Program-made: the position numbers and the translations under genes | Notes under the pieces: model-generated | Told to the model about the DNA's origin: nothing | Database searches by the model: none | The model's input: only the letters and a program-made list of their open reading frames with translations | Shown: positions 1 through 63,138 of the stretch, piece after piece | Numbering within the stretch: position 1 is the stretch's first letter | How the letters are laid out: every line of letters starts with the position of its first letter | Assembly (NCBI GenBank): GCA_964354805.1 | Contig: CAYHBD010000009.1 | Span: 64,001-128,000, forward strand | Direction of reading: 5' to 3' | DNA: 64,000 nt | DNA from: an uncultured archaeon | Lineage (GTDB): Archaea > Iainarchaeota > Iainarchaeia > Iainarchaeales > GCA-2688035

Positions 1-398
1 CTAAAAAATTTACTTACAGGGGATTTGACTTGGAGCAACTCCAGCAGATGACAGTGCAGGAGTTCGCAAAAATCTGCAACAGCAGGCAGAGGCGCTCGCT
101 CTTAAGGGGCTTTGACCGCCACCTGCTTAAAAAAATGGAGAAGGCAAGGGAAGCAATCAAGGCTGAAAAAAAGCAGCCTGTTGTTAGAACGCATTTGAGG
201 GATGCAATAATAATTCCGCAAATGGTCGGATTGCTTTTCGGAATACACAAAGGCAGCGTATTCGAGGTTGTTGAAATTCAGCCCGAAATGCTTGGGCATT
301 ACCTTGGGGAAATGGCACTGACAAGAAAGAAGATTACGCACGGAAAAGCGGGAATCGGCGCAACAAGAAGCAGCACAGCAATAACAGCAAGGAAGTGA
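1..398 (+). CDS. rps19: 30S ribosomal protein uS19 (5' truncated by window edge)
   Basis: Frame from nt 3 reads KKFTYRGFDLEQL...RTHLRDAIIIPQMVG...EMLGHYLGE...GIGATRSS; start lies before nt 1. Confidence 0.96.
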   Translation, partial: KKFTYRGFDLEQLQQMTVQEFAKICNSRQRRSLLRGFDRHLLKKMEKAREAIKAEKKQPVVRTHLRDAIIIPQMVGLLFGIHKGSVFEVVEIQPEMLGHYLGEMALTRKKITHGKAGIGATRSSTAITARK

Positions 399-478
399 AG
401 AAAAGAAAAAATTGGGATTCACAGAGGGCAAAGAAAAAGGGGACAGCAAGGAAGTGAAATAATTCAGGGAATTTTTTT

Positions 479-949
479 ATGGCGAAGAAAAATTACCAAA
501 TGCAGTTCAGCGACGAGAAAAAGATAGCGAAAGCAATCGCGGCAAACCAGCGAATTTCGACCAAATACGCTACGGAGATGTGCAGGGAAATAAAGGGAAA
601 GCCGCTGGCGAAAGCTGTTGCAATGATCCAGAGGATAATGGAAAAGAAACAATACCTGCCGCTGCGAAAATACAACAAGGAAGTCGCCCACAGAAAAGGC
701 GCTGCACTGAGCGGAACAAAAAGCGGAAGGTTCCCGGAAAGATGCTGCAAGGTTTTTCTCAAAGTATTGGACAGCGTGAAGGCAAACGCTGACTTCAAGG
801 GCCTTGATGCAGAAAACCTGCTGATAGTGCACTGCTTTGCATCATATGGATTCAGGAGAAGGAGCATGCAGTCGAAAGGCAGAATCTCAGGAAAAACGAG
901 GAAAAGCAAAAGCACCCACCTGGAAATAATCGTAAGAGAGGCGAAATAA
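479..949 (+). CDS. rpl22: 50S ribosomal protein uL22
   Basis: ISTKYATEMCREIKG, GRFPE, ANADFKGLD, STHLEII; synteny. Confidence 0.96.
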   Translation: MAKKNYQMQFSDEKKIAKAIAANQRISTKYATEMCREIKGKPLAKAVAMIQRIMEKKQYLPLRKYNKEVAHRKGAALSGTKSGRFPERCCKVFLKVLDSVKANADFKGLDAENLLIVHCFASYGFRRRSMQSKGRISGKTRKSKSTHLEIIVREAK

Positions 950-965
950 ACATTGGTGAAAATAG

Positions 966-1946
966 ATGATTGAGAGAACATTCATTGAGCAGGGAATGAA
1001 GAAGATTGAGTTGCACAATTTCCTGAAGCAGCAGCTGGACAGGGCTGGCTTTACCGGCCTGGACATTGTGAAAACCCCCCTTGTTACAAGGATTGTTCTG
1101 CATGTTGCAAGGCCAGGCCTTGCGATTGGAAAAGGAGGCCAGAACATCAAGCAGTTGACCGAAGACATTGGGGCAAAATTCGGAATAGAGAACCCGCAGA
1201 TTGAAATACAGGACATCAAGCACCCGGAACTGGATGCAAAGGCAACGGTTGACAGGATGGTTGGATTGCTGCAAAGGGGCTACAGCTGGCGCTCGGTTTC
1301 ATTCAATGTTGTCAGAACAGTAATGGGCAGCGGGGCGCAGGGCATTGAATTGATTTTAAGCGGAAAACTGAGCGGAAAAGGCGGAAGAAAAAGAAGAACG
1401 AGGATAGCGCAGGGATATATGAAGAAAGTCGGGGACCAGGTTAAATTGGTTGATTACGCAAAGGCAAACGCTTACCCGAAAGCTGGAGCAATCGGAATAA
1501 AGCTGAGGATAATCCACCCTGAAACAGTATTCCCTGACAAGATTAACATAAAGGAATTGCTTGAAAAAAGGGAAGCGGCTGCAGCACAGGAAAAAGAGGC
1601 AGCGGTTGCAGCGGAAAAAGCCGCAAAAGAAAAGGAAGAGCAAAAAGCAAAAGAAGCTGAAAAAGAAAAAACTGAAAAAGCAGAAGAAGCTGAAAAAGCC
1701 GAGAAAAAGGAAGCTGAAAAGGAAAAGGCTGAGAAAAAGGGCAGGGAAAAGAAAGAGCAAGGGGAAAAGAAAAAAGAAAAAGCTGGCAAAGAAGAGAAAG
1801 CAGCAGGGCGAAAGGCAGAGAAAAAAGAAGAAAAGGAAAAAGAAGCTGAAAAGGCAGGCAAGGAAAAAATTGAAAACGAAGAGCGCAATGAAAAACACGC
1901 TGAGAAAAAGGAAGAAGAAGAGGCTGAAAAGGTGAGCGCTGAATGA
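966..1946 (+). CDS. rps3: 30S ribosomal protein uS3 with ~120-aa K/E/A-rich C-terminal tail
   Basis: KH motif RPGLAIGKGG, GAQGIELILSGKL, GAIGIKLRI. Confidence 0.96.
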   Translation: MIERTFIEQGMKKIELHNFLKQQLDRAGFTGLDIVKTPLVTRIVLHVARPGLAIGKGGQNIKQLTEDIGAKFGIENPQIEIQDIKHPELDAKATVDRMVGLLQRGYSWRSVSFNVVRTVMGSGAQGIELILSGKLSGKGGRKRRTRIAQGYMKKVGDQVKLVDYAKANAYPKAGAIGIKLRIIHPETVFPDKINIKELLEKREAAAAQEKEAAVAAEKAAKEKEEQKAKEAEKEKTEKAEEAEKAEKKEAEKEKAEKKGREKKEQGEKKKEKAGKEEKAAGRKAEKKEEKEKEAEKAGKEKIENEERNEKHAEKKEEEEAEKVSAE

Positions 1947-60881: not shown

Positions 60882-61580
60882 TTGGCAAAAAAGAAGGAAG
60901 AGCAAAAAGAGGGCAGGGAAGCCAAGCGGGAAAAGGCTAGCGATAAGAAGGCTGCGAAAGAAAAGGAAGAAGAGAAACAGAAAGCTGCCGAAAAAAAGCC
61001 CAGGCAGCACAAGCCGAGGGTAACGGAATTGGAGCACAAGCTGGCTGAGGCACAGGAAAAGCTTAGGCAGAAAAAGGAGAAAGAGGCCAAAGAGGAGGGC
61101 AAAGCAGCTGAAAAAGCCACTGCTGAAAAGCCGCTGCATGCAAAGGAAGGTCTGCCTGAAAGACTGCACAGGGAGCGGAAGCCGGGAGTTCCTGCATGGG
61201 TTGAATTAAAGCCAGCTGAGGCAGTTGAGGCAATGGTTAATCTGGCTAACGCAGGGCACAGCAGCAGCGAGATTGGAATGCTTTTGAGGGACCAGTACGG
61301 GGTTCCAAACATTAAGGCATTGTGCGGCAAGAGCATTGAAGAGATTCTTGCAGAGCACAAATTGCTGCCTGAGATTCCATCAGACCTGATGAATTTGATT
61401 AAGAGAAGCGTTAATTTAAACAAGCACCTTGCGAAAAACAGGAAGGATTTCACTGCAAAAAGGGGCCTGCAGCTCAGTGTCGCAAAAATCAGGAACCTTG
61501 TAACTTACTACAAGAGAAAGGGCAAGCTGCCAATGGACTGGCATTACAGCGAGGAAACAGCAGCATTGCTGGTGAAGTGA
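60882..61580 (+). CDS. rps15: 30S ribosomal protein uS15 with K/E-rich N-terminal extension
   Basis: PAWV, SEIGMLLRDQYGVP, IPSDLMNLIKR, KRGLQL, YYK..GKLP.DW; TTG start after GGTGA. Confidence 0.95.
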   Translation: MAKKKEEQKEGREAKREKASDKKAAKEKEEEKQKAAEKKPRQHKPRVTELEHKLAEAQEKLRQKKEKEAKEEGKAAEKATAEKPLHAKEGLPERLHRERKPGVPAWVELKPAEAVEAMVNLANAGHSSSEIGMLLRDQYGVPNIKALCGKSIEEILAEHKLLPEIPSDLMNLIKRSVNLNKHLAKNRKDFTAKRGLQLSVAKIRNLVTYYKRKGKLPMDWHYSEETAALLVK

Positions 61581-61770
61581 TATTAAAAAAGTGAATTAAA
61601 TGGATTGTGGTTTTGTTTTGAAAAAGCAGGGCAAAGTGATTGCAAAACAGAAAGGGATTGCTGACTTGCAGCAAATGCTTTGTGCAATTGACGCAGTAAT
61701 CACGAAAGAGCAGGGCAACTGAAAATGGATGCTGAAAAAGGAAAAAATGGTGGAACAAAGGTGACTGAGA

Positions 61771-62379
61771 ATGGCTGCTGAGAAAGAGAAGAAGGCAAGG
61801 GTTGTTGACAAGTGGAAGAAAAAGCAGTGGTTTGAACTGGTTGCGCCGAAAGAGTTTGATGAAAAGGTCATTGGCGAAACAATTGCTGAAAAAGAGAAAA
61901 ACCTTTTGAACAGGGTTGTGAGCGTTAATCTGGGCGACCTGAGCGGCCAGAGGCAGAGAAGGCACATAAGCATCTTGTTCAAGGTAGTGCAGGTTGAAGG
62001 AAAGAGGGCGAAAACAATTGCAATTGGCCACAGCATAAGCGGGGGCTTTGTGAACAGAATGATCAGGCGGAGAATGAGCAAGCTTGAGGTAACCCAGCAG
62101 ATTGACATTGCTGAAGGAAAAAAACTGAAGGTCAAAACCATTGTTCTTTCTGTTAAAAAGCTGAGCAGCAAGCAGGAAACTGCCCTGCGAAACCAGCTGG
62201 CTGAAAGGATTGAAAAAATGTACAGGAAAAAGACAGAGCTGCAGACAATGCAGGAATTGTTTTTCGGAGTCACGGCATCCAAGCTTTTCAAGCCACTTTT
62301 AAAGATCGCGCCACTGAAGAAAATCGAAGTGATTGAAAGCAGGCTGATTGGACAAGGGGCAATTGAACAAAAGGCTTAA
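61771..62379 (+). CDS. rps3ae: 30S ribosomal protein eS1 (S3Ae)
   Basis: DKWKKKQWF..AP.EF, IGET, IRRRMSK, IAPL. Confidence 0.93.
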   Translation: MAAEKEKKARVVDKWKKKQWFELVAPKEFDEKVIGETIAEKEKNLLNRVVSVNLGDLSGQRQRRHISILFKVVQVEGKRAKTIAIGHSISGGFVNRMIRRRMSKLEVTQQIDIAEGKKLKVKTIVLSVKKLSSKQETALRNQLAERIEKMYRKKTELQTMQELFFGVTASKLFKPLLKIAPLKKIEVIESRLIGQGAIEQKA

Positions 62380-62454
62380 AGAAAAATTGAATGACTGAAT
62401 TAAATTTAAATAAGTTAACGCAGGCTGATTGGATAGAACTGTCGAAGGGAAAGT

Positions 62455-63138
62455 ATGACTGAACTGCTGCATGCGGCAATAGTTCTGGCTGTTTTGTGCA
62501 TTTTCTCAATTGTGAGCTATAAAAAAAAGCTGCTTGACTTTGAAGGCATTCTTGTTGCAAACATCGTTGGCTTATTCATTTTTTTGCTTGGGAACATTGT
62601 AAATTTTCTTTTCATCGTTTTCTTTTTCATAATAGCCGAAGCCAGCACTATTTTTGCAAGGAAAAACAGTAGAACAAAACATGAAGTGAGGACAACCGGA
62701 AACATTTTGGGCAACAGCGGAGCAGCTGTTCTTTCCCTCATATTCAATTTTCCTTTCGGTTTCTTTGCTGCATTGTCAGCTGCTTTGGCTGACACGCTGA
62801 GCAGCGAAATAGGCCTGCTTTCAAAAAGAAAACCTGTCCTGATAACAACACTGGAAAAAGTGCCGCACGGCACTGATGGTGGGGTTACACCGCTCGGAAT
62901 GTACGCTGCGCTGGCAGGCGCTGCAGCGATTGCCTCAATCCACTTTTATTTGCAGCAAAACCTTTTGCTTTTTCTTGTTTTGATTGCAAGCGGTTTTATC
63001 GGCAGCACTGTTGACAGCTTCTTCGGCGCAGTATTCGAAAGAAAAAAAATGCTGAACAACGCCGAAGTAAACTTTTTGGGCAGCTGCGGCGGGGTTGCAG
63101 CAGGGCTTCTTTTAATCAGGCTGGCTGCAATCTTGTAA
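62455..63138 (+). CDS. DUF92/TMEM19 family membrane protein
   Basis: NILGN, ADTLSSEIG, LITT...GTDGGVT..G, DSFFGA, NNAEVN. Confidence 0.92.
   Translation: MTELLHAAIVLAVLCIFSIVSYKKKLLDFEGILVANIVGLFIFLLGNIVNFLFIVFFFIIAEASTIFARKNSRTKHEVRTTGNILGNSGAAVLSLIFNFPFGFFAALSAALADTLSSEIGLLSKRKPVLITTLEKVPHGTDGGVTPLGMYAALAGAAAIASIHFYLQQNLLLFLVLIASGFIGSTVDSFFGAVFERKKMLNNAEVNFLGSCGGVAAGLLLIRLAAIL

Follow-up and report, generated by a model that had tools for sequence, protein, structure and literature searches.

Second copies of gene ends in the operons of an uncultured Iainarchaeales archaeon: probably for the most part an unusual form of tandem duplication and decay, with a silently diverged minority

Why should the ends of genes in normally compact archaeal operons be spelled out a second time in the neighbouring spacers? 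The question is raised by a 64,000-nt stretch of DNA (the window; positions 64,001 to 128,000 of contig CAYHBD010000009.1, here C9:64001-128000) from genome G000, a metagenome-assembled genome (MAG) of an uncultured archaeon of the Iainarchaeales (1.38 Mb, 49 contigs, 44% GC, 88.5% complete). The first 36 kb of the window carry, on the plus strand, the ribosomal-protein, secY and RNA-polymerase-subunit cluster. A sequence-only reading of the window had claimed that such second copies, termed echoes, are pervasive, that they differ from the live gene ends mostly at synonymous sites, and that they are old termini stranded when alleles were replaced from relatives. Our analysis indicates that the echoes are a real, pervasive and lineage-specific mutational habit. 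Most of them are best read as an uncommon form of tandem duplication followed by decay, and a minority of the dead copies carry a true coding-selection signature, which partly supports allele replacement.

Frequency of gene-end echoes in the window and the genome

The window was searched for direct repeats of at least 14 nt at spacings of 25-150 nt, with a complexity filter (entropy of at least 1.6). Thirteen complex repeats were found, compared with 0.10-0.17 in shuffled sequences, including sequences shuffled within 50-nt blocks; the same search at a distance of 1025-1150 nt returned two. A/G-rich low complexity, which the sequence-only reading had named as a possible refutation, does not explain the repeats. 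Genome-wide, exact 12-mer repeat pairs showed a sharp maximum at 40-70 nt spacing: the 50-59 bin held 72 of them, compared with about 3-4 in each 10-nt bin at distances above 1 kb. When the last or first 45 nt of each of 1118 genes were aligned to the neighbouring 160 nt, 3' echoes were detected at ~97 genes and 5' echoes at ~60, whereas reversed flanks gave 4 and 8, respectively. At roughly one gene in ten, the opening or closing codons are thus repeated in a short copy beside the gene. The pervasiveness of the echoes is thereby confirmed, far above shuffles and reversed-sequence controls, in part by an alignment of gene ends against adjacent sequence of the kind that had been proposed as its check.

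Within the window, the following loci were examined (p, plus strand; m, minus strand):

384-399 and 443-458, p: 3' end of rps19, live copy (including its TGA) and echo; 59-nt period, 16/16 identity; junction with rpl22 of 80 nt.
2638-2654 and 2695-2711, p: dead and live rnp1 start at the SUI1 stop/rnp1 start junction; 57-nt period, 17/17 identity.
7852-8061, p: 3' end of gene 7173-7868, repeated at least twice more, from 7932 and from 7992; spacings 80 and 60.
13141-13336, p: copy of the rpl34e start (13141-13208) overlapping the 3' end of gene 12680-13189, and copy at the true start (13269-13336); 128-nt period, 26/26 core within a 68-nt match at 82%.
17998-18013 and 18047-18062, p: 3' end of rpl13, live copy and echo; 49-nt period, 16/16 identity.
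18660-18689 and 18747-18776, p: 3' end of rps9, live copy (TAA) and echo (TGA), 28/28 (18660-18687 vs 18747-18774) up to the differing stops; hairpin-type segment between the copies.
30956-30986 and 31010-31040, p: upstream echo and start region of rpoE1; 54-nt period, 31 nt at 84% identity; between-copy segment matching the flank.
32065-32092 and 32131-32158, p: 3' end of spt4, live copy (TAG) and echo (TAA); 66-nt period, 27 nt at 89% (32065-32091 vs 32131-32157).
40722-40741 and 40780-40799, p, feature to 40816: 58-nt duplication inside the reading frame of a Lon-like gene (39883-40816); 19/20 identity.
44358-44410 and 44305-44357, m: last 53 nt of a helix-turn-helix (HTH) regulator gene, live copy and echo, head-to-tail without filler; 49 nt at 90% (44309-44357 vs 44362-44410).
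56665-56711 and 56715-56761, p: 3' end of valS, live copy and echo; 50-nt period, 47 nt, gapped alignment score 50, silent and replacement differences mixed.
61725-61746 and 61771-61793, p, feature to 61796: upstream echo and start of rps3ae; 46-nt period, gapped score 23.
62313-62352 and 62394-62433, p: 3' part of rps3ae and its repeat in the spacer; 81-nt period, 40 nt at 78%, 14/14 core.

The echoes proposed earlier at rps19, rnp1, rpl34e, rpl13, rps9, rpoE1, spt4, the Lon-like gene, the HTH gene and valS were recovered. The one at the rps3ae start is present but weak, near the control range; that proposed at the DUF92 start (62391 vs 62455) came down to an 11-nt identity, and the one proposed at bud32 was not located at the genes tried.

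The repeats range from 14 to ~60 nt in length. Those lying at junctions or in spacers showed no phase preference (spacing modulo 3 of 47:40:38), whereas 69 of the 78 repeats with both copies within a gene were in frame. The in-frame bias inside genes implies that selection filtered real mutations, not assembly errors. An assembly artefact, in which contig ends or strain variants were joined untrimmed, might be suspected in a MAG of 49 contigs, and the modal spacing of ~55 nt is near a common assembler k-mer size. However, the copies differ by substitutions and indels, up to ~20%, their spacing runs from 41 to 130 nt instead of taking one value, and no perfect copy is as long as its spacing. 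Reading frames are respected and genes never broken; moreover, G004, a MAG of the same family, shows the phenomenon at a lower rate, and G006, another genome of the family, has an echo of its own. We regard such an artefact as extremely improbable.

Junctions compared with those of related genomes

The nearest genomes available for comparison belong to other genera, at ~70% DNA identity, and a scan of metagenomes for closer relatives returned none above 74% SecY identity. At the rps19/rpl22 junction, the spacer measures 4-6 nt in five relatives and 17 nt in L049, a contig from a relative, against 80 nt in the window; read by eye, the segment between the two rps19 copies holds a decayed rpl22 start. 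The SUI1/rnp1 junction is a single 8-nt stop/start overlap of the ATGCTTAA type in six relatives, and the window's spacer, again by eye, holds decayed copies of both neighbours. Downstream of gene 7173-7868, a 6-nt spacer in L049 corresponds to one of 193 nt here, whose repeat family shows 67-84% similarity and likely includes a fourth copy near 8038.

The same tendency was observed along the ribosomal operon, where the G000 spacers at ten junctions exceed those of L049 by 58 to ~225 nt, with several excesses near 58, 116 and 174. Sites that are compact in relatives (4-6-nt spacers or 8-nt overlaps) carry 57-59 extra nt in G000. Because the relatives' junctions are compact or overlapping, the echoes are lineage-specific gains. 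The median same-strand spacer is 58 nt in G000 and 23-24 in two relatives, and spacer lengths in G000 form two groups, one compact and peaking near 0, the other peaking at 40-70 nt. A third bump may be present near 110-120 nt, as though growth proceeded in ~55-nt steps. The density of junction repeats is 84.5 per Mb in G000, where their spacing has its mode at 45-65; it is 51.9 in a genome of the same family, at shorter spacings, and 7.5 in a complete genome of the same order.

The spacers had been described as purine-rich, which is correct for the ribosomal-protein part of the window (0.68 vs 0.62 in coding sequence) but not genome-wide (0.55 vs 0.57).

One junction of the closest genus, G001, was also noted. 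In L002 (G001:C46), rps19 and rpl22 are separated by 101 nt of purine-rich sequence with internal ATTGGG(G)AAA repeats and without a clean echo; junction expansion is thus not confined to G000.

Structure of the duplicated units and how they would arise

Clean head-to-tail units without filler were found at window positions 44305-44410 (53 nt), at C43:11859 (56 nt, three copies) and at C9:147788 (58 nt). Significant similarity of the between-copy segment to the flanks was seen in 32 of 82 events, where ~4 were expected, and such flank-derived middles are what a longer, decayed tandem unit should leave. Arrays of three to four copies (window 7852-8061, rpoE1 and C43) indicate that events recur at one junction. 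The bulk of the echoes is best read as local duplications of ~55 nt, followed by decay and further rounds in the same place. Many short duplications, mostly of 45-65 nt, have gathered in this lineage across gene junctions that were very compact at first, and we consider it moderately probable that they, together with decay, recurrence and partial overwriting, gave rise to the echoes.

Under this account, a duplicated unit would take in the last part of one gene, the first part of the next and the tiny spacer that separates them. It would be tolerated because each gene retains one intact terminus, and the redundant terminus would be left in the new spacer as an echo. Repeated duplications, together with decay of the old copies, could then build spacers of 60-200 nt in operons that are tight in relatives, and most echoes would decay irrespective of codon position. 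Two features, namely the perfect blocks of 16-31 nt within decayed units and the subset of echoes with silent differences only, appear to need a second process, and recombination would fit both. Part of one copy may have been overwritten, either from its sister copy or from the working allele of another lineage. The single live terminus of a donor genome could pair with the echo plus the outer flank, or with the gene body plus the live copy; a near-identical donor would leave a perfect block, and a diverged donor would leave silent-only differences, as between two live alleles. One-step import and the overwriting of an existing duplication give the same final structure and are inseparable on these data.

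Several observations weigh against this account. The narrow preference for ~55 nt has no demonstrated cause. About half of the middles (~50/82) show no detectable flank similarity, although the test is weak for segments of 20-30 nt. A perfect full-length tandem duplicate was not found anywhere in the genome; perfect blocks reach at most 31 nt, at spacings of 43-87 nt, although short-read assembly may under-represent perfect tandems. The youngest-looking events are instead short perfect blocks around dissimilar sequence, which simple duplication does not predict; at C42:47326, for example, a 31/31 block lies beside a segment ~61% identical (by eye) in one unit. It is the lack of a fresh full-length copy that forces the additional overwriting step.

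The echoes might instead be long, variable target-site duplications around small inserts (miniature elements, hairpins or filler), produced when staggered breaks are filled in. An X-insert-X arrangement, with perfect repeats of 16-31 nt around an unrelated 20-50-nt middle, is present in about half of the events, and ~10 of the 82 middles, that of rps9 included, are copies of a dispersed hairpin element. Yet ~70 of the 82 middles have no second genomic copy or common family, and the flank-derived middles, the several pure head-to-tail events without an insert and a repeat length that excludes a fixed stagger are not what such insertions predict. The silent-only divergence would also go unexplained, and Cas1 was not found in G000; we therefore consider target-site duplication quite unlikely as the general origin. 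The negative search for Cas1 (PF01867) in this 88.5%-complete genome, with control genomes positive, together with the variable duplication length, also led us to reject off-target integration of CRISPR spacers. Templated insertion from elsewhere in the genome was rejected too: apart from the ~10 hairpin elements, searching the middles against the genome returned no second source and no family, with scores no better than those of shuffles. As for the hairpin elements themselves, those at window 18690-18746, C16:22976-23095 and C16:23248-23360 of G000 sit exactly between perfect target repeats of 21-28 nt, and one target resembles a tRNA 3' end. The element may copy its target when it inserts; alternatively, it may favour duplication junctions that are already in place.

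The size preference itself suggests a specific mutational mechanism in the family. Loss of flap or ribonucleotide processing was rejected as the cause, given that G000 encodes FEN1, two copies of RNase HII, and NucS. It also has one histone gene; a link of the size preference to the footprint of a histone tetramer, about 60 bp, would be no more than a guess. MutS and Ku were searched for in G000 and not found, which explains nothing specific; their absence is common in archaea.

Among known systems, local short tandem duplication by slippage, unequal exchange or staggered-break fill-in is alike in being head-to-tail, in surviving where genes stay intact, in the decay of the redundant part and in the growth of arrays. 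In contrast, the units seen here peak near 55 nt instead of being skewed to short lengths, straddle junctions systematically, include no fresh perfect full-length copy and contain a subset with silent-only divergence. The Borg elements of Methanoperedens carry perfect multi-copy arrays of short units; they share with the echoes an archaeal habit of local tandem repetition, in frame within genes and unconstrained between them, whereas the repeats described here come mostly as diverged pairs of ~55 nt, centred on the ends of genes. Gene-carrying insertions are reportedly flanked by long, variable direct target repeats (Nobusato and colleagues, 2000), but the middles of the echoes are tiny or absent and often flank-derived.

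Silent divergence and the case for allele replacement

Mismatches between live copies and echoes fell at codon positions 1, 2 and 3 in a ratio of 26:33:65 (n=124). Sixty-four of the 124 (52%) were synonymous, whereas random single changes would give 20-28%. For duplication in place, where the echo is free to drift and the live copy stays under constraint, we estimate that ~37% would be synonymous; the expectation is ~25-37% when drift of the live copy is allowed for. Base composition was rejected as the source of the third-position excess, as it predicts 34% of mismatches at position 3, against the 52% observed. Directional decay to purines was likewise rejected, both because pyrimidine-to-purine changes (22) do not outnumber the reverse (26) and because spacers are not purine-enriched across the genome. 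A diversity-generating retroelement was also discounted, since the substitutions (A>G 28, G>A 24, C>T 14, T>C 10) show no adenine asymmetry, although no search for a reverse transcriptase was made.

The excess is concentrated in part of the events. In the 29 that have two or more changed codons, the counts of synonymous and non-synonymous changes were strongly over-dispersed (P<5e-5 by simulation). Nine events were all-silent, with synonymous to non-synonymous counts of 7:0, 5:0, 5:0, 3:0, 3:0 and four times 2:0; the five with at least three changed codons compare with 0.1-1.2 expected. The remaining events held 19 synonymous and 46 non-synonymous changes (29% silent). All-silent echoes thus form a minority, some 5-9 out of roughly 80-150. 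The earlier statement that echoes diverge mostly at synonymous sites is accordingly right about the excess but must be confined to a subset of events. Its corollary, that slippage and decay are insufficient, applies to the all-silent class, whereas the other events are as synonymous as in-place decay predicts.

The five best all-silent echoes (C9:147788, locus 147788-147903; window 44305-44410; C43:11859, locus 11804-11970; the glmS end at C2:7162, locus 7162-7242; and C29:10632, locus 10632-10728) spell the live peptide with 3-9 silent changes. At C9:147788, KKLRAVLEKELMGE and its stop are spelled twice, and the two versions differ at nine bases, TTA/CTC and CTG/TTG among them; at the glmS end, the invariant NLAKSVTVE tail is repeated; and at C43:11859, MKILFITSTFLKSKEDEQ is repeated with five silent changes. 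Paralogues were rejected as their origin, as no other copies were found in the genome. Differences that are exclusively silent imply that one of the two copies changed elsewhere, while still serving as a functional gene end. Import from a diverged relative predicts this pattern, and these echoes point to gene ends swapped in from related lineages.

The HTH regulator gene illustrates the class. Its live end and echo differ at seven sites, every one a third codon position, and encode the same peptide apart from a D/E exchange; the echo retains the family-consensus ...EE and TAA, and the live copy has ...DE. Before the duplication, the gene evidently ended ...GAG GAA TAA. The second unit begins TGAAG (from ATG AAG), which places an in-frame TGA right after the first unit and leaves the protein unchanged. 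The live TGA was thus created by the duplication junction, so the apparent stop swap is a junction effect. By our estimate, an echo decaying in place over the time recorded in the live copy (~40% of third positions changed) would carry ~20 changes at all positions; it has none outside third positions. Relatives could not be used to polarise the seven variable sites, which are saturated and uninformative. Nor was an echo of this gene end found in the other relatives searched, except G006. There, L063 (G006:C56), from another genus of the family, has its own decayed HTH 3'-end echo directly after the stop, at ~50-nt spacing and with replacement changes, and the gene end appears to have been duplicated independently in two genera.

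If every echo arose as the sequence-only reading proposed, by one-step replacement that was homologous within the gene and illegitimate past its end, the all-silent echoes would look exactly as they do. Such replacement would also explain well-conserved coding blocks with a dissimilar spacer between the copies, and its geometry is like the C-terminal displacement proposed for Rhs and type VI secretion system (T6SS) loci (PMC5361080). However, most classifiable echoes show the neutral-decay proportion of silent changes, as the spt4 echo does with its two non-synonymous codon differences. There is also no reason under this scheme for a spacing peak at 45-65 nt or for three to four copies at one junction, and the flank-derived middles fit local tandem duplication instead. 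Perfect blocks of 20-31 nt beside a dissimilar spacer are unexpected from a close donor. Homology-facilitated illegitimate recombination reportedly occurs less often than ordinary homologous recombination by orders of magnitude (PMC5361080), which is difficult to reconcile with ~150 affected termini. Silent-only copies could, in addition, result from ordinary homologous recombination overwriting one copy of a pre-existing duplication. Replacement as the origin of every echo is therefore improbable; allele replacement is partly supported, for the minority of events that are all-silent, given their bimodal separation, and not for the majority, with their spacing peak, arrays and flank-derived middles.

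C-terminal displacement leaves orphan 3' ends at Rhs, contact-dependent inhibition (CDI) and T6SS effector loci; Kirchberger et al. (2017, PMC5361080), citing Jackson et al. (2009, PMC2935791), ascribe it to homology-facilitated illegitimate recombination. The likeness lies in a new end placed ahead of the displaced old one, in strings of old ends and in the import from relatives that is invoked. Displaced pieces at those loci measure hundreds of bases to kilobases, with differing toxin tips and immunity genes under diversifying selection, whereas the echoes are 15-60 nt long, belong to housekeeping genes, repeat the same peptide and affect both 5' and 3' ends. Integrative elements that bring a replacement gene end duplicate the 3' ends of genes as attL and attR. 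In that case too, the live and displaced ends can differ synonymously, each having evolved as a working end; the echoes, however, enclose no element (0-50 nt, no family), and 5' ends are affected as well.

Selection for a function of the echoes, as relay upstream open reading frames (ORFs), retained ribosome-binding sites or small peptides, could in principle also preserve a coding pattern. Some junctions have a suitable form: the rnp1 echo forms a short ORF leading from the SUI1 stop to the live start, the C43:11859 echo reads as an ORF (11859-11917) that begins with ATG and closes with a TGA overlapping the live ATG, and the HTH echo starts with a GTG overlapping the live TGA (ORF at 44305-44360). 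On the other hand, most echoes decay, 3' echoes occur in all frames (spacing modulo 3 of 19:15:20), and two of the five best all-silent cases, C9:147788 and glmS C2:7162, lack a usable start codon. Translation of the echoes was rejected on these grounds as a general answer. Translational coupling requires overlaps or very short distances (PMC10666635, PMC6728339). It would put no constraint on the amino-acid sequence. We judge maintenance by function to be very unlikely as the explanation of the echoes.

Returning to duplication with partial overwriting, it is possible, though we put this forward tentatively, that the echoes are a fossil record of gene ends replaced from diverged relatives. 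At a measurable share of the housekeeping genes of this lineage, a live terminus and its stranded neighbour would then be alleles of different lineages, joined by unequal or one-sided recombination across junctions that a lineage-specific ~55-nt duplication process produces again and again. If true, the number and age of the echoes in a single genome would give a direct measure of recombination between lineages of uncultured archaea. The silent-only subset is in any case a rare non-coding relic with a coding-selection signature and, if its members are imported alleles, offers such a single-genome handle on recombination between diverged DPANN lineages. For operon architecture, the echoes mean that tight archaeal operons such as the ribosomal-protein cluster gain long spacers by repeated small duplications that copy termini, not by foreign DNA. 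The process separates overlapping stop/start pairs, gives rise to small upstream ORFs and now and then alters the tail of a protein, for which the Lon-like gene is an example; it so supplies raw material for new regulation.

Four loci of the window add detail. In the Lon-like gene, the reading frame runs from the first copy into ~23 new codons, and the old tail, ...AVNYLIAQINAT*, survives out of frame in the second copy; the match to orthologues in relatives ends at about residue 288-297 of 308. In the upstream copy of the rpl34e start, a TCA has changed to TAA. The dead rnp1 start (window 2638-2697) opens a 16-codon ORF (2638-2688), MLKEKKNVQKPLGKKT-stop, on the SUI1 stop overlap, which ends 6 nt before the live ATG and could, from its position, act as a relay for termination-reinitiation coupling once the junction had been pulled apart. 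Finally, the longest ORF of the HTH gene (window 44358-44909, minus strand; GTG start, 184 codons) is probably over-extended: relatives show stops within the first ~40 aligned codons, and translation seems to begin in fact at residue 39, a Met (MSPEPK...).

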